DNA of 64,000 bases, taken from contig CBDCNP010000002.1 in NCBI GenBank assembly GCA_965219415.1, forward strand, positions 4,000,001 to 4,064,000, written 5' to 3'. The notes under the pieces were generated by a model that worked only from the letters and a program-made list of their open reading frames with translations, did not search any database and was not told the origin of the DNA. This document shows, one piece after another, positions 25,019 through 34,643 of this stretch (positions are counted from its first letter, which is position 1; the number at the start of each line of letters is the position of its first letter). The DNA comes from Candidatus Marinacidobacterales bacterium (GTDB taxonomy: Bacteria; Acidobacteriota; Vicinamibacteria; Marinacidobacterales; DATDRI01). The position numbers and the translations under genes are program-made.

Positions 25019-26713
25019 ATGAAACACTTACAAGTATCAAAAATCGCGATCGGCCTGCTTGGTGTGTGCCTCCCCCTCGCTGCCCAAGGGACATCACAAA
25101 GCGGTTACCAAAAGTTGGTCGCCCTCGACAAAGACTTCCTGGAGCTTCAGAAACCCAAGCAAGTCGACGGCATCCCGGACTACAGTCTCGACGCGATGAA
25201 GGCCCAGAAGAACGGCTTGGACAATGTTCGCCAACGTCTGGCGGCCATCGACGTCAACCCCTGGCCGATTAATCAAAAGGTGGACTATCTGCTGGTGTGG
25301 GCCAGGCTCAACGAGCTCGACTTCGCCCACCGCGTGATGCGACCTTGGGCCCGAGATCCGAACCTCTACCTCGACCTGGTGAGCCGATTGGCCTATATCG
25401 AGGTACCCGTCCCCGAAGGCCAAGCGGCTCCGGCGGGCCCGAGAAAGCTTCATCCGGTTGTTCCGCGCATGTCCAAGGCCGAGTTCCGCAAAAAGTTACA
25501 AGCGGTGCCCAAGATCATGGCCGAGGCCCAGACCAACCTGACGGTTCCGGTTGGAGAGCTCGCCCATACCACACTTTTCCATCTAGAGAGTTTCGACGGT
25601 GTGGGAGCGCGGGAGCCCTACCGCGATGAGCCGCCCGATGGCACCATCGGTTGGTACCAGGACTTGTGTGAGCGACTATCGCGGCACCAATCGGACCTCG
25701 TCGCCGATTGCGAAAACGCCCTGAATGCCCTCGAAGGCTATCGGGATTGGCTCAAGGCGAAGGTCGACGAGATGCCCCAGTCGGCCGCCATCGGAATTGA
25801 TAATTTCAACTGGTACCTCAAGTACGTCCGCCTCGTACCTTTCACGGTGGACGATCTCAAAGCCCACGGTGAGCGGGAGCTCCAGCGCTACCGCATTAGT
25901 TACATCATTGAGCGGAACAAGAATCGCAACTTACCCGAGCTTAAACTGACGCAGTCCAGAGAAGAGCACGAGGAGCGGACACGGAAAGCGGAGCAGAAGA
26001 TTCGAGCTCTTATCGCCTGGCAGGAGCTCTTGACCATCCCAGACTATATGCCCGCCGAGTTCGAAACCGACGTGTTCTGGAGCCCGAGAGCGCCGATCAA
26101 ACGGCACTTCTGGGAGGAGATTCAGTTCCGGAATGCGCTCAACAATCACATTCACGCGTCCATCCCCGGACACCGCTTCGACGTAAGGCTCCGGGACCAC
26201 CTCGACAGCCCGATCCGTCGTACCTACAATGACTGGAATCGCAGGCAAGGATGGGCGGTGTATCTCGAGGAGATGTTCGTACTGGCCGGTCTCACCGATG
26301 ACAACCCTCGCGCCGCCGAGCTCTTCTACGCTGCCCTCATGAAACGGGCAAGCCGGATCTTCGCAGAGACGAAAATGCACAGCGGCGAGTTCACGCTGGC
26401 CGAGGCCAATCAGTTGATGATTGACTCCGTTCCCTTCATGGAAGAGGACCTAGGGCGTTACGACCTGGAGGGTTATCTACGCCGCCCCGGCGGGGGGAGC
26501 AGCTACCAGATTGGGAAAATACAAGTCGAGCAATTAATGTTCGATCGGGCAAGGCAGCTGGGAGATGAGTTCAATCTGAAGGCCTTCCATGACGAATTTC
26601 TGTCTAAGGGCATCATCCCGGTAACCTTGATTCGCTGGGAAATGACCGGTTTGGACGATGAGGTAAAGCCGCTGTGGGCAGAAGCGGTTGGGCCGCAACC
26701 GTCAGAAGATTAG
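25019..26713 (+). CDS. DUF885 family exported protein
   Basis: Signal peptide; HASIPGH, QGWAVYLEE, SYQIGK, LGDEFNLKAFHDEFL..G.IP C-terminal signature. Confidence 0.88.
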   Translation: MKHLQVSKIAIGLLGVCLPLAAQGTSQSGYQKLVALDKDFLELQKPKQVDGIPDYSLDAMKAQKNGLDNVRQRLAAIDVNPWPINQKVDYLLVWARLNELDFAHRVMRPWARDPNLYLDLVSRLAYIEVPVPEGQAAPAGPRKLHPVVPRMSKAEFRKKLQAVPKIMAEAQTNLTVPVGELAHTTLFHLESFDGVGAREPYRDEPPDGTIGWYQDLCERLSRHQSDLVADCENALNALEGYRDWLKAKVDEMPQSAAIGIDNFNWYLKYVRLVPFTVDDLKAHGERELQRYRISYIIERNKNRNLPELKLTQSREEHEERTRKAEQKIRALIAWQELLTIPDYMPAEFETDVFWSPRAPIKRHFWEEIQFRNALNNHIHASIPGHRFDVRLRDHLDSPIRRTYNDWNRRQGWAVYLEEMFVLAGLTDDNPRAAELFYAALMKRASRIFAETKMHSGEFTLAEANQLMIDSVPFMEEDLGRYDLEGYLRRPGGGSSYQIGKIQVEQLMFDRARQLGDEFNLKAFHDEFLSKGIIPVTLIRWEMTGLDDEVKPLWAEAVGPQPSED

Positions 26714-28399: not shown

Positions 28400-28560
28400 T
28401 AAAATCTAACAAAAAAGAAGAGAATGGGACGACGACATGCGACGCCTGATGGCGTCCTACGACAAGCTTGAGGAGAGAGGCGTTTGCATACCGATCAATG
28501 AAGACCTCTTTTAAGGACACGACACGCGCCCACCCCTTGTCGGCTGCGGTGGATGCAGAC

Positions 28561-29132
28561 CACGCGTCTATCCCCGGACACCGCTTCGACGTAAGGCTCC
28601 GGGACCACCTCGACAGCCCGATCCGTCGTACCTACAATGACTGGAATCGCAGGCAAGGATGGGCGGTGTATCTCGAGGAGATGTTCGTACTGGCCGGTCT
28701 CACCGATGACAACCCTCGCGCCGCCGAGCTCTTCTACGCTGCCCTCATGAAACGGGCAAGCCGGATCTTCGCAGAGACGAAAATGCACAGCGGCGAGTTC
28801 ACGCTGGCCGAGGCCAATCAGTTGATGATTGACTCCGTTCCCTTCATGGAAGAGGACCTAGGGCGTTACGACCTGGAGGGTTATCTACGCCGCCCCGGCG
28901 GGGGGAGCAGCTACCAGATTGGGAAAATACAAGTCGAGCAATTAATGTTCGATCGGGCAAGGCAGCTGGGAGATGAGTTCAATCTGAAGGCCTTCCATGA
29001 CGAATTTCTGTCTAAGGGCATCATCCCGGTAACCTTGATTCGCTGGGAAATGACCGGTTTGGACGATGAGGTAAAGCCGCTGTGGGCAGAAGCGGTTGGG
29101 CCGCAACCGTCAGAAGATTAGGCTCCAACTAG
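28561..29132 (+). pseudogene. Duplicated 3' fragment of the DUF885 gene (repeat copy 2)
   Basis: Near-identical to 26153..26724. Lacks the first ~378 codons and any credible start. Confidence 0.9.
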
Positions 29133-30977: not shown

Positions 30978-32801
30978 TCACCTGCTGCCGAGGGTTTCTC
31001 CCAGGCGCACGAGCTCTCTGTTGTCCGGCCATCTCCCGAGCCCTTCCTCGAGAACCCGGCGTGCTTCGCGTCCCTCGCCAGACTGTGCGTAAGCGCGGAC
31101 GACTCTGACACAGATTTCGGGCGAGGGAGCAAGCTCGAACGCTTTTCGCAGAACCTGGACGGCTTCCCGGTGTCGCCCCACTTGATTGAGGGCGGTGCCC
31201 AAATTGACGTAAGCGTTCACGAGCTCGGGCGCATGGGATATGGCGGCCTCAAAGGACATAATGGCTGCGGACAAGTTACCGGAGCGGGCCTCCAGAGTGC
31301 CCAGGTTATTGTGGGCCTCGGCGAAGTAGGGGCGTAGCTCGAGGGCGCGACGATACGCGTCTCGTGCCTTGGACTGCTGCCCGAGCGCCGCCGAAACGTA
31401 ACCGAGATTGTTATAGGTGTCCGCCAAACGCGGGTTCAAGGCGACCGCTTCCTCGAACGCCCGTCCCGCCTCGTTCCATCTTTGTTGGTTGAGCATCACC
31501 GTCCCGAGGTTGTAATGTACCTGAGCCGCCGACTGACCCTTATCGATGGCCCGTCGATAAAGCGTCTCCGCGTGACTCCAATAACCCCGCTCCGCGAACG
31601 CGTTTCCAAGCGCAAAATCGTTCCGCAAGAACTCACCCACCAAATTGATGCCGTCGAAAGGGAGACCAAGACGCTTCCGCTCTTCGGCAGTCCGCGGGAT
31701 CCGTCGCGAGTCGGCCACAACTTCATCGACCCCGACCGCGCCGCGGTAGGCTTTGACGATCCTTCCTCGCGCGTCGATAAGAAAGCTCATTGGAACGCCC
31801 AAGTTCGAAATGCGGTCGTGAAGATTGGAGGCCAGAACCTTATAGACCCCTACCATCTCTTCATTGGCCAAGAGCAGCGGGAAGTCGAGACCGAGCTCCG
31901 CCTGGAACGCGCGCACCGCTTGCTCCGCCGGTGGCTCATCTACAGAAACCGCCATCAGGGTAACGCCCGAGGCATCGAGCTCCGCTCTCTTGGCCTTGAA
32001 ATCGAGGAGCTCGCCGCGGCAAGGGGGACACCAGCTCGCCCAGAAGTTCAGCAACACTTTCCTTCCCTCGAGACTGGAAAGCCGGTGGGAGTTGCCGTCC
32101 AGATCCCCCAACGTGAAATCAGGGGCAGGTAAAGGATCCAGAAGCCATGTTCCACGACGGGAGGGGGGTGCGGCTCTCTCGGCTTTCGGAACCGGTGTGG
32201 CACGGGATGACTGGAAAGGCTCTCGTTTGAACTTCTCTTCCCCTTCGATCACGTATACCACGTGATTCGATGGGACGGACCGTAACGTTTGCACGAGCCC
32301 GTTCGTCCACCGTATGACGACTTTCTCTAGCTTTCCCAAGCCTTCGAGGCCAAAGTGCAAAGACCGGCTACTTTGGGATAAGTAGCCGCTCGCCACGCGT
32401 ACGGTCTTCTGTCGGACGCCGCCGCTCGCATGCACCTCGACGCGCGTGCCGATAGCATCACGGTTGCTCGAGCGACCCTCCAAGACGAACCTAACAGCGG
32501 CCCGCCCGTTTGCCAGGTCGTTCCGCAGAAGCCGTAGCTGAGGCGCGTTTCGGTTTTTGAGTGCAACATCGATGTCACCATCCAGGTCATAGTCGAATGC
32601 GACGAACGCTCGCCCGTCTTGGGGAAAGTCGAGCCCGCTGATACCTGAGGCGTCGATGAAGGTGCCATCACCGTTGTTCAAGTAGAAACGGTTCCGCTCG
32701 TGTCCGCTCCAGCTTCCGTCGCCACGGATGAGTCGATCGATCGCGCTCCAGCTTCGCTCGTAAAGCTCCACCGCTTTCCTGTCAGGGGGTGAGCGCGACA
32801 C
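30978..32801 (-). CDS. ASPIC/UnbV + TlpA-like redoxin (WCPPC) + TPR protein; probably the C-terminal half of a UGA-readthrough protein starting at 34643
   Basis: SWSGHERN, SNRDAIGTRV..SGYLSQ..LHFGL (ASPIC/UnbV), NFWASWCPPC, several YNLG/NNLG TPRs. The GTG at 32801 has no RBS and is in frame with the upstream ORF. Confidence 0.85.
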   Translation of the reverse strand: MSRSPPDRKAVELYERSWSAIDRLIRGDGSWSGHERNRFYLNNGDGTFIDASGISGLDFPQDGRAFVAFDYDLDGDIDVALKNRNAPQLRLLRNDLANGRAAVRFVLEGRSSNRDAIGTRVEVHASGGVRQKTVRVASGYLSQSSRSLHFGLEGLGKLEKVVIRWTNGLVQTLRSVPSNHVVYVIEGEEKFKREPFQSSRATPVPKAERAAPPSRRGTWLLDPLPAPDFTLGDLDGNSHRLSSLEGRKVLLNFWASWCPPCRGELLDFKAKRAELDASGVTLMAVSVDEPPAEQAVRAFQAELGLDFPLLLANEEMVGVYKVLASNLHDRISNLGVPMSFLIDARGRIVKAYRGAVGVDEVVADSRRIPRTAEERKRLGLPFDGINLVGEFLRNDFALGNAFAERGYWSHAETLYRRAIDKGQSAAQVHYNLGTVMLNQQRWNEAGRAFEEAVALNPRLADTYNNLGYVSAALGQQSKARDAYRRALELRPYFAEAHNNLGTLEARSGNLSAAIMSFEAAISHAPELVNAYVNLGTALNQVGRHREAVQVLRKAFELAPSPEICVRVVRAYAQSGEGREARRVLEEGLGRWPDNRELVRLGETLGSR

Positions 32802-32825
32802 GACCTGCCGCCAAAAGAAACTTCA
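32790..32825 (-). other. In-frame UGA plus candidate bacterial SECIS element
   Basis: mRNA reads UGA-AGUUUCUUUUG-GCGGCA-GGUCG-UGUCGC-GCUCA: a 6-bp stem starting 11 nt after the UGA, with an apical loop beginning GG. Confidence 0.65.
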
Positions 32826-34643
32826 AAGATCCTTCGTTGAGGCATTAGTAATGTAGCCGTTGACGGTATAGAGATCGTCATTCCCGTCGTTGTCGCAATC
32901 GAAAAAATCGCTGCTCCAGGCCCATCGCCCGAACTCGACTCCTGCCTCCTCACCGACCTCTTCGAACCTTGCTCCCCCTAGGTTGCGAAAGAGACTGTTT
33001 CCCTTGGCGTGCCGCCGGTAGCTGGCCCGTGCCTCGCCGGCGTGGTAACCGCGCTGCGCGGTGAGGCGCAGACCGGCAGAGGACCACATGTTGCCTACAT
33101 AGAGATCGTCTTTGCCATCGAGATCGTAGTCCGTCCAGGCCACACTCATGCCGGCCCCGATGTCCTCCACCCCCGCCTCTCGGCTAATCTCGATGAAAGT
33201 GCCGCCAAGGTTCCGATACAGATTGTTACGGCCGAAATCGTTCGCCACATAAAGGTCTGGCCATCCGTCGTTGTCGAAATCGCCCCAAGACGAGGAAAGG
33301 CTGAAACGATCGTTGCCGGCCTCTAGACCCGAACCGGTGGTCACGTCTTCGAACGTTCCGTCACCCTCATTCCGGAAAAGGATATTTGGAGGTCCATTGG
33401 TGGCATCATGATACGGGTAAGGCAACGCCAGAGCGGTGTCCTCTCCGGGAGCGTCGACGTATCGGTAGCAGGTAACATAGAGGTCGAGGTCGCCGTCATT
33501 GTCATAGTCTGCCAGTGATGCCGAGCTGAGAGTCGCCTTGACTTCGTCTCTTCTCTCTAACGAAGCGCGAGACGGCTCGAATCTTCCTTGGCCGTCGTTC
33601 AAGAGAAGTACGACATTCCAGTTTTGGATGACGACAAGTAAGTCTTGATCGCCATCACTGTCGATGTCACCGAAGAGCCCCATCGAGGTTCGCTCCAGGA
33701 TGTCGATCCGCGAGGCCTGGCTGATGTCATCGAACGTCCCGTCACCCCGGTTGCGGTAGAGCCGGTTCGGGAGTCCCTGCGCCTGGGCCACGAAAAGATC
33801 CTCGAGTCCATCGTTATCCACATCCCCCACCGCAAGTCCACTGTGCCCGTAGAGATCAACCCCACTGGCGGCGTCCATTCCGGCGCGGAAGTAATCGATA
33901 CCCAGCCGCATCTGTCCCCAGTAGGAGGCTTCCTCGGCCCAGGCGATGCTGCTCACGTCGGTAAAGAAGGGCGCGGCCGAATGGCCGCCGGTGGCGGGTT
34001 CAGGCTTGAGGCGCTTCATTTTCCAGATGCCATCGGCAAGGACCCAGTCGAGTCGCCACCAACCTAAACGAGCAACGATCTCGTTCCGCGCCCCTCGCCC
34101 CACCAGGTCGTACAAGACACGAGTCCGTGCCTGGGCCGGAGCAGCACCTGAGGGAACTCCCACCTCGATGCTCACGATCTTGAACTTGAATGCAGAAAAG
34201 GAATTGAAATCTTGAACCCAAGACAAAAATTCCGAGGGCGCCAGGGCCGCTGCCACCGAAAGCTCATCCTCGTAGCGAAACCGGTAGAGTCGAACGCCGG
34301 GTGGTGCGCCCACCGGTTTGCTCGATACCGGCGTTAGAGACGCTCCCCGGAACTCCGCGTCGACCAGCGAGGCGATCGCTTCTGGGCGATGATCTTGTAA
34401 TGCCGCTTCGAGTAGGTGGAGTCTCTTGTCGAGTGCTTCTGTGACCGCCTCGGTCGCCCACCGGTCCTGTTCCGCATCCACCGCAACGAAGAGGGACTCG
34501 ACTGCAGAAGGCTTAGAGACGTAGCCCCGGAGTGGGAAGACCTGCTGGCCCTCTTCCGATTGTGGGGACCGTTCTGGAGCCAGCGCCGTACGTGGCAGGA
34601 GTAAGAGGGCCAGACATGCTAAACGAGGGAACGACTCGACCAT
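32823..34643 (-). CDS. Exported FG-GAP/VCBS repeat (CRTAC1-like) protein; N-terminal half of a candidate selenoprotein
   Basis: Signal peptide; repeats GDVDNDGLEDLFV, DYDNDGDLDLYV, GDFDNDGWPDLYVAND, NxLYRN. Ends in TKDL-TGA, in frame with SFFWRQVV. Confidence 0.88.
   Translation of the reverse strand: MVESFPRLACLALLLLPRTALAPERSPQSEEGQQVFPLRGYVSKPSAVESLFVAVDAEQDRWATEAVTEALDKRLHLLEAALQDHRPEAIASLVDAEFRGASLTPVSSKPVGAPPGVRLYRFRYEDELSVAAALAPSEFLSWVQDFNSFSAFKFKIVSIEVGVPSGAAPAQARTRVLYDLVGRGARNEIVARLGWWRLDWVLADGIWKMKRLKPEPATGGHSAAPFFTDVSSIAWAEEASYWGQMRLGIDYFRAGMDAASGVDLYGHSGLAVGDVDNDGLEDLFVAQAQGLPNRLYRNRGDGTFDDISQASRIDILERTSMGLFGDIDSDGDQDLLVVIQNWNVVLLLNDGQGRFEPSRASLERRDEVKATLSSASLADYDNDGDLDLYVTCYRYVDAPGEDTALALPYPYHDATNGPPNILFRNEGDGTFEDVTTGSGLEAGNDRFSLSSSWGDFDNDGWPDLYVANDFGRNNLYRNLGGTFIEISREAGVEDIGAGMSVAWTDYDLDGKDDLYVGNMWSSAGLRLTAQRGYHAGEARASYRRHAKGNSLFRNLGGARFEEVGEEAGVEFGRWAWSSDFFDCDNDGNDDLYTVNGYITNASTKDL

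Follow-up and report, generated by a model that had tools for sequence, protein, structure and literature searches.

Within a 64,000-nucleotide window of the Candidatus Marinacidobacterales genome assembly GCA_965219415.1 (contig CBDCNP010000002.1, positions 4,000,001 to 4,064,000 of the forward strand), a minus-strand gene at 30978..34643 carries an in-frame UGA at codon 607 that is almost certainly a selenocysteine (Sec) codon. Its product is likely an exported, CRTAC1-like beta-propeller selenoprotein whose redox-active Sec is reduced by a fused CxxC redoxin domain. The relay between Sec and CxxC is, on its own, also considered probable. Support comes from comparison of sequences: conservation of the UGA across four phyla, a covarying hairpin specific to UGA-bearing genes, and the fate of the CxxC motif when Sec is replaced. 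Unless a contig is named, coordinates are those of the window.

The gene forms one frame of 1221 codons plus a terminal TGA, and its sole internal TGA is codon 607. Translation table 11 splits it into two open reading frames (ORFs), 32823..34643 and 30978..32801, both on the minus strand. The 21 nt (seven codons) joining them are in frame and free of stops, and the second ORF as listed begins at a GTG. A preliminary description of this DNA held that the two ORFs share a frame, are parted by a TGA only and read through as 1221 residues with U607, which the ORF listing and a translation with TGA as U bear out. On that translation the context of U607 is ..NGYITNASTKDL-U-SFFWRQVVSRSPP.., and the features of the gene, all on the minus strand, are as follows.

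30978..34643, minus strand: coding sequence (CDS), from the ORF listing and translation; the same single TGA is present in orthologues of five other genomes at 74-88% identity.
34578..34643, minus strand: probable signal peptide, MVESFPRLACLALLLLPRTALA/PE, inferred by reading the sequence.
32544..33851, minus strand: FG-GAP beta-propeller (Pfam FG-GAP_3, E 5.5e-44, six stretches).
32823..32825, minus strand: UGA codon 607, read as selenocysteine, in the invariant motif D-x-U-S-x-F-W-R; one alignment column in 67 loci.
32795..32811, minus strand: hairpin of selenocysteine insertion sequence (SECIS) type, GCGGCA-GGUCG-UGUCGC, 11 nt past the UGA, lying inside the CDS over codons W611-R617.
32259..32456, minus strand: UnbV_ASPIC domain, residues 730-795 (Pfam E 1.5e-15); aligns with residues 375-485 of CRTAC1 (9etn_A).
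31731..32129, minus strand: TlpA/ResA-like redoxin domain, residues 839-971 (Pfam AhpC-TSA 2.7e-24, Redoxin 1.1e-20).
32019..32030, minus strand: redox motif C872-P-P-C875 (W-C-x-x-C), a sequence motif; W871, C872 and C875 are invariant in 21 Sec-bearing homologues.
31014..31616, minus strand: C-terminal TPR array, residues about 1010-1210 (Pfam TPR_1, TPR_2 and others), confined to clade A of the three clades described below.

Six DxDxDG calcium-type motifs (residues 274, 326, 379, 455, 505 and 582) precede U607 and a seventh (residue 684) follows it. Sec is thus located between the sixth and seventh motifs and the propeller spans the TGA, in keeping with the earlier claim that the FG-GAP repeats continue past it. 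An FG-GAP propeller followed by UnbV_ASPIC is the CRTAC1/ASPIC-UnbV layout, here with Pfam scores above the cut-offs. In a PDB profile search the propeller body matches human CRTAC1 (9etn_A, E 1.8e-40), and for the redoxin domain two extracytoplasmic reductases come nearest, ResA (1st9) and TlpA (1jfu), at E about 1e-22. Sec was also described as sitting outside the thioredoxin-fold CxxC, and this is the arrangement observed: U607 belongs to the propeller and the W-C-P-P-C motif is all-Cys. The mature protein has three further cysteines beyond C872 and C875 (C392, C583 and C1178), none of which is among the columns invariant in 21 aligned homologues. A hydrophobic N-terminal leader is present in the orthologues and in the clade-B paralogue, the N-terminus resembles a signal peptide in every clade, and from this leader the protein is probably exported to the periplasm. 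In clades B and C the protein ends after the redoxin domain and has no TPR array.

The TGA occupies one alignment column in 67 fetched loci, 64 of them distinct over the first 45 nt, from the Acidobacteriota, Verrucomicrobiota, Planctomycetota and Gemmatimonadota. With read-through allowed, a search of 40 relatives returned a single in-match TGA in the five orthologues, which span two taxonomic families, and in about 15 remoter homologues at 34-39% identity that include a second copy in the same genome. Codon-level mapping placed the TGA of all 21 of these first loci in the shared column. The family falls into three main clades with 30-40% mutual identity, reading ..TKDL-U-SFFWRQ (A), ..MKDT-U-SLFWRH (B) and ..GD[ST]-U-SxFWRA (C), and D605, S608, F610, W611, R612 and the redoxin W-C-x-x-C are invariant in 21 aligned Sec-bearing sequences. 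The second copy (L043; G000 C2:205495-208032, minus strand) belongs to clade B, is 940 residues long without a TPR tail, and reads ..MKDT-U-SLFWRHVVA.. with a WCVPC motif and the hairpin CGCCAC-GUG-GUGGCG.

Across a phylum sample of 401 genomes, a profile of 146 residues around Sec matched 114 at E<=1e-15. Among the 150 matches listed, a form with one TGA occurs in at least 61 of the 401 genomes, often in two or more copies; this tally takes in one unpublished genome (G089), and for matches that were not fetched the status is the search flag only. When 40 flagged loci of the sample were fetched, 38 had the TGA at the column and two had it one or two residues off in the alignment. Named genome records with TGA forms comprise Akkermansiaceae, Verrucomicrobiales, Mariniblastus (Planctomycetota), Gemmatimonadetes, Pyrinomonadaceae and metagenome-assembled genomes (MAGs) of Acidobacteriota. 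The codon also has support beyond this assembly, since Logan contigs of three runs from three other studies (X2, X7 and X8) cover 32823-32825 with no differing letter, the comparison being with contigs and not raw reads. In a fourth run from a metatranscriptomic library (X20), a 258-nt contig of a relative crosses the TGA unchanged with 13 differences elsewhere, which is not proof of transcription of this gene. The presence of a stop codon would, taken alone, fit a private nonsense mutation or sequencing error in a pseudogene. This explanation is already refuted by a TGA common to 67 loci across four phyla and unchanged in contigs of three other studies, and by the strong conservation of both halves.

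Metagenome contig depth over the gene is uneven. It leaps from about 3-10 to 110-290 at window 32772-32833, the site of the UGA and hairpin, and a second spike of 31-130 stands at window 33237-33298, about 430 nt upstream in the gene. Both are short stretches common to many other contigs, at which assemblies break, and the spike at the UGA and hairpin fits conservation at the nucleotide level among relatives in the same samples.

The hairpin GCGGCA-GGUCG-UGUCGC that had been described 11 nt after the UGA was found at 32795-32811 on the minus strand. A stem of 5-11 bp is present in nearly every TGA locus, starting 7-15 nt (mostly 10-13) past the UGA and closing on an apical loop of GGUCG, GGUC, GUC or GUG. 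Stem arms change in compensating fashion, as in GCGGCA/UGUCGC, GCGACA/UGUCGC, GCGGCA/UGCCGC, GCGGCG/CGUCGC, GCGUCA/UGACGC, GGCGCCA/UGGCGUC, GCGUGC/GCACGC and GCGCAC/GUGCGC. In an alignment of 59 ungapped rows from clades A and B (A2, none dropped), a 7-pair helix is paired in 84.9% of cells against 79.3% in shuffles, with none of 500 shuffles reaching the observed value, and slid controls are paired in 28-72%. The pair 18-28 takes five standard types (CG 35, GU 7, UA 5, AU 2, GC 2), and column 18 of this pair falls on the third, synonymous position of the Arg codon in W-R. All five inner pairs form in 45 of the 59 TGA loci compared with 2 of 25 non-TGA homologues encoding the same SFFWRQVV peptide, while pairing at 18-28 drops from 90% to 36%. 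Decay of the hairpin where the peptide stays the same argues that the structure is kept for the UGA rather than for the protein sequence. Covariation, which the preliminary description proposed to test in TGA-bearing homologues, is present, and the hairpin is specific to TGA-bearing genes.

The closest known element is the SECIS of E. coli K-12 fdhF, in which the UGA is followed after 11 nt by GGUUGCA-GGUC-UGCACC. Both have a stem that opens 11 nt past the UGA, an apical GGUC loop and the heptamer GCAGGUC, which starts at nt 19 from the U of the UGA in fdhF and at nt 18 here, an offset of 1 nt; the likeness pointed out earlier is upheld. Here, however, the stem is a perfect 6-bp helix with no bulged U, and a lower stem containing the UGA is not conserved. 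By its position, loop and covariation, the hairpin appears to behave like a SECIS of fdhF type. The preliminary description also had the UGA pair with a downstream UCA, and this pairing is present in this sequence but is not conserved among homologues. Across 56 distinct homologues the lower-stem pairing of the UGA (columns 34-36) forms in 48% of cells, within the 26-49% of slid controls, and the lower stem was dropped as part of the element.

The genome encodes the machinery that UGA decoding as Sec would require, and all four of selA, selB, selC and selD, which the preliminary description proposed to look for, were found. Bit scores are 476 for SelA, 69.7 for tRNA-Sec (above gathering), 58.5 for the SelB winged-helix domain and 328 for selD. 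The selD gene (L207; G000 C3:3889655-3890587, plus strand) itself has an in-frame TGA, in CAG-U-ASK, and the fold predicted downstream of it is unlike the present hairpin, the two having no organism-specific signature in common. SelA (E<=1e-40) was detected in 301 genomes of the 401-genome phylum sample, among them 57 of the 61 with a TGA form. Each of the other four (G270, G358, G121 and G295) has a tRNA-Sec at 68-76 bits, such that SelA or tRNA-Sec is found in 61/61. Sec is used by three quarters of the phylum, which makes the co-occurrence compatible with a Sec codon but not strongly discriminating.

One alternative is that the UGA is read through by a near-cognate tRNA (Trp, Cys, Arg or Gly) with the hairpin as a stimulator of read-through, and it would suit the G, R and S found at the column in homologues, each of them one step away from TGA. 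It is very improbable given that SelA or tRNA-Sec accompanies every sampled TGA form, that the spacing and GGUC loop of the hairpin match the SelB-binding element of fdhF, that Cys forms of the family exist, and that the same genome decodes UGA as Sec in selD and Prx-type genes.

The genome itself seems rich in selenoproteins. At least four redoxin or peroxiredoxin genes have an in-frame TGA of UxxC or TxxU type, namely GSW-U-PFC (G000 C1:52628-52999, minus strand), DTPG-U-TAEGC (G000 C3:378001-378381, plus strand), WASW-U-AGC with a TPR tail (G000 C3:1394679-1395149, minus strand) and FTGG-U-TAEC (G000 C3:3431227-3431592, plus strand).

Database records reveal how the family has been annotated. 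When the clade-B paralogue was used as query, 98 of the 120 best hits were N-terminal halves ending exactly at the column (..M[KEND]DT). Their sources call these half-proteins hypothetical protein, FG-GAP-like repeat protein or VCBS repeat protein, and the labels on the records are Acidobacteriota, Latescibacterota, Eisenbacteria and Tara. Gene callers systematically split the family at the UGA. Non-TGA homologues are single polypeptides, and one such relative (P0127) has the NCBI name 'CRTAC1 family protein'. Taken at face value, the truncated records would make the UGA a true stop, leaving a 606-residue N-terminal propeller and a C-terminal protein re-initiated at the GTG 22 nt downstream, which is just what gene callers yield. 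That view is hardly tenable when the seventh propeller motif and the ASPIC domain are located past the stop, when the seven codons from UGA to GTG encode the most conserved motif of the family (S-x-F-W-R), and when homologues without the TGA are uninterrupted. It would also leave the UGA-specific covarying hairpin unexplained.

Residues replacing Sec are seldom Cys. At 25 fetched close non-TGA loci the column holds S, A, G, N, D, E, Q or Y, and Cys in none. A clade-A query gave 5610 database homologues at E<=1e-10, and the best 120 of these, full-length at 53-59% identity, have S (67), A (34), G (12), N (6) or E (1). A true Cys form is nevertheless represented by P0123, one of the hits to the clade-B query and 961 residues long, which reads ..MKDT-C-SHFWRQVV.. 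and carries WCAPC. Its Cys is confirmed because an exact look-up retrieved the record, as would not happen for one bearing U. Two further Cys forms, P0319 and P0335, were among 40 column-covering representatives from a profile search of 1.84 billion representatives. The frequency of Cys is accordingly 0/120, 1/120 and 2/40 in three overlapping sets. The earlier expectation of TGA or Cys at this column is thus borne out by TGA in 67 loci, with Cys rare, and classical Sec/Cys pairing exists but is uncommon. Such scarce substitution could mean that Sec has a role that Cys cannot fill, or that its role is non-catalytic.

Cysteines do occur near the column in more distant proteins. Seven CRTAC1-like paralogues (L046, L050, L051, L099, L103, L108 and L123) have a C-x(10-11)-C-x-P pattern whose first Cys falls at the Sec column. 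A possible origin of the Sec site in a disulfide loop is hinted at, but at 25-30% identity the alignment is uncertain. L078, a distant homologue from a Verrucomicrobiales MAG record, has a column Cys within ES-C-RDY-C-TTFWRH (C-x-x-x-C) and no redoxin domain.

Whether Sec and the fused redoxin domain belong together can be gauged from their joint retention. CxxC was scored at the redoxin active-site position, 260-280 residues after the column, in the 66 TGA loci with an intact 3' end (L076 is cut), and the sets tallied overlap in part. The motif is present in 65 of these 66 loci, the exception being L203, and in all three Cys forms. Elsewhere it is scarce: only 3 of the 25 fetched non-TGA loci have it, as do 2 of 120 database homologues of clade A, 1 of 18 non-Sec forms aligned for clade B, and 5 of 38 representatives without Cys at the column. 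The manner of loss also differs between clades. Clade-A non-Sec forms retain a redoxin-like fold without its cysteines, as judged with Pfam, and clade-B non-Sec forms (R 6, S 6, E 3, A 1, I 1) stop about 200-230 residues past the column with the whole redoxin domain absent.

A FastTree phylogeny of 91 rows, with the Sec column masked, the redoxin domain excluded and L071 omitted as too short, has Sec in all major clades and non-Sec forms nested among them. These comprise a 20-member clade without CxxC, L161 with L164 and, separately, L162, all three with CxxC, and L147, which is truncated. The pattern fits Sec being the older state, lost several times with decay of the partner afterwards, although the tree is unrooted and its counts cannot separate gain from loss. 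With only three independent contrasts in the tree, the co-retention of Sec and CxxC is striking but not statistically demonstrable. The preliminary description suggested that the WCPPC redoxin may recycle Sec; joint retention of CxxC with Sec and Cys forms supports this as a probable coupling.

Two TGA sub-families depart from the general architecture. In the first (L206 and L210-L213, from genomes G133, G094, G433 and G425) the column reads ..DG-U-[TR]-C-[LV]W.., which creates a U-x-C motif, and the protein has no redoxin domain, ending 209-224 residues after the column. Beginning 13 nt past the UGA, a stem of 7 bp (nt 17-23/30-36) is retained with compensating arms (GGGCUGU/ACAGCCC vs AGGUUGC/GCAACCU). 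A local resolving Cys in place of the absent fused CxxC is what a redox-active Sec would predict. The second sub-family (L203, identical to L215 from G255, and L205, identical to L214 from G045) reads ..DD[LF]-U-LP[YF]I[VL]SAVAH.. with a hairpin GCGC-GGUC-GCGC.

Our results suggest a model in which SelB and tRNA-Sec would decode UGA-607 as directed by the fdhF-like hairpin within the CDS. The resulting protein would comprise, in order, a signal peptide, an N-terminal region of no known family, a seven-bladed FG-GAP propeller, UnbV/ASPIC, a TlpA/ResA-like WCPPC domain and TPRs. Sec, in the conserved loop D-x-U-S-x-F-W-R, would be the redox-active residue of the propeller body. Turnover would oxidise it to a selenenic acid or selenenylsulfide, and the fused CxxC domain would then re-reduce it. 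The CxxC domain would itself be reduced, probably, by a membrane transporter of CcdA/DsbD type, and a gene with a DsbD/CcdA-type membrane domain (DsbD_TM) is present elsewhere in the genome. Substrate reduction would be of the peroxide, sulfoxide or disulfide type. There is good support for the inference that Sec and the cis CxxC, or the local U-x-C, form a periplasmic redox pair. An electron path from DsbD/CcdA through the TlpA-like domain and Sec to substrate is more weakly suggested, by analogy with TlpA/ResA and the PilB Msr fusion, and reductase or peroxidase type chemistry is likewise a weak suggestion from analogy.

A number of observations weigh against this interpretation. Sec is exchanged mostly for S, A, G or N rather than Cys, which is unusual for a catalytic Sec. 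CxxC is retained in some non-Sec forms (L161, L162, L164, P0135 and five representatives). Three changes on the tree suffice for the Sec/non-Sec labels and three for the CxxC/no-CxxC labels, and a sign test over the three independent contrasts gives p>=0.5. The TGA sub-family of L203 and L205 has neither redoxin domain nor nearby Cys and so stands outside a Sec-CxxC relay. For the recoding element, nothing here corresponds to the bulged U of the fdhF SECIS, and no Rfam family matches window 32650-32950, where the sole hit is a microRNA model at E 8.2. Gene neighbourhoods offer no conserved neighbour pointing to a pathway, the best flanking-ORF cluster being common to 5 of 67 TGA loci.

Several of these points would be accommodated if Sec is real but its selenol binds a soft metal or metalloid or carries a chalcogen, with the TlpA-like domain only keeping Sec reduced or serving another client. 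TlpA-type proteins service metal-site proteins, for instance clients with copper sites. The near-absence of Sec to Cys exchange, with small or polar residues appearing instead as CxxC is lost, would be in line with such a role, as would the L203 and L205 sub-family, which lacks any partner Cys. Several catalogued bacterial selenoproteins are also metal-binding (PMC13188914, Table 1). We regard this role as unlikely, if well worth keeping in mind. No conserved His, Cys or Met cluster surrounds Sec, whose invariant neighbours are D, S, F, W and R, and the U-x-C sub-family together with the retention of CxxC in Sec and Cys forms fits a selenenylsulfide relay at least equally well. A redox-active Sec served by a CxxC partner is the interpretation we favour.

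Comparison with known systems places the novelty in the protein and not in the decoding, since the recoding mechanism is an ordinary bacterial one. Proteins of the CRTAC1/ASPIC-UnbV type (human CRTAC1, PDB 9etn; PF07593) have in common with this one an FG-GAP propeller with DxDxDG motifs followed by UnbV_ASPIC, but here Sec is set in a loop between blades 6 and 7 and a redoxin domain and TPRs are fused to the propeller. The CRTAC1 structure literature has nothing bearing on the Sec-holding loop, which the PDB profile alignment to 9etn skips. The redoxin domain and its W-C-x-x-C resemble TlpA and ResA (PDB 1jfu and 1st9). Those proteins are stand-alone, membrane-anchored and act on separate clients, whereas the present domain and its presumed client are joined in cis. 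NCBIfam equivalog scores are below the cut-offs, at 79.5 bits vs 170 for ResA and 63 vs 230 for TlpA. No CRTAC1/ASPIC-UnbV member has, to our knowledge, been described as a selenoprotein.

Known TlpA/Prx-like selenoproteins (the ResA-like WAxxUGC family NF041054, UGC-containing TlpA and Prx-like UxxC) also have a thioredoxin-fold redoxin domain, sometimes with a TPR tail. In these, Sec replaces a Cys of the CxxC, unlike the present protein in which CxxC is all-Cys and Sec is placed in another fold, some 265 residues upstream. NF041054, which requires Sec in the redox motif (WAxxUGC), scores 75 bits on the redoxin/TPR part against a cut-off of 300. An architectural parallel for a cis relay is Neisseria PilB, whose N-terminal domain recycles its Msr domains. 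PilB (TlpA-like + MsrA + MsrB) is likewise a periplasmic fusion of a TlpA-like CxxC domain to catalytic domains, and the PDB search with the redoxin domain hits its N-terminal domains (2h30, 2jzr and 2fy6). In the present protein a Sec propeller would be the catalytic partner in place of an Msr fold, and the domains come in the opposite order.

The family is absent from the catalogue of selenoproteins and from NCBIfam. NCBIfam release 20 has no model for the propeller part, and Table 1 of PMC13188914 (2026), covering 119 prokaryotic selenoprotein families and sub-families, has no FG-GAP, ASPIC/UnbV, CRTAC1 or propeller entry, in agreement with the preliminary statement that this is not a classical selenoprotein family. 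A search of full-text literature on selenoproteins or selenocysteine together with FG-GAP, VCBS, ASPIC/UnbV, CRTAC1 or Acidobacteria/SECIS produced nothing relevant. Term searches within PMC13188914, PMC12013277, PMC9312934 and PMC1794560 gave no mention of the family, and supplementary tables, such as those of the deep-Sep paper, lie outside this coverage and may list candidates.

Recognition of the UGA as Sec would affect a large family that now stands in databases as thousands of half-proteins, under the names 'hypothetical' or 'VCBS/FG-GAP repeat protein'. It would place Sec in a fold where none was known and enlarge the selenoproteomes of soil Acidobacteriota beyond what is annotated. Redox chemistry would offer a first functional handle on bacterial CRTAC1/ASPIC proteins. 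The coexistence of Sec with CxxC, Cys with CxxC, U-x-C and non-redox forms also provides a natural series in which to ask why Sec persists. More tentatively, and with rather less confidence than the propeller selenoprotein itself commands, the gene may be the founding case of a class of periplasmic beta-propeller selenoenzymes with an effectively Sec-obligate loop, supplied with electrons by a cis TlpA-like domain or a local U-x-C. Lineages that lose Sec would shed the redox partner and become non-redox CRTAC1-like proteins. We know of no biochemical function for CRTAC1-like propellers from bacteria to man, and if such a class exists these propellers may descend from, or include, enzymes.

The genes surrounding the locus in the window encode amidohydrolases, an S9/DPP-IV peptidase, DUF885 and an M23 peptidase. 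Among the TGA loci as a whole, the flanking cluster present in 5 of 67 is a CRTAC1-like paralogue. A 217-residue ORF at window 28468-29121 (plus strand) aligns with DUF885 over the C-terminal third alone (profile positions 366-531 of 532). Situated 1.8 kb upstream of it is a DUF885 gene of full length, at window 25019-26713 (plus strand), and the shorter ORF may be a gene fragment.

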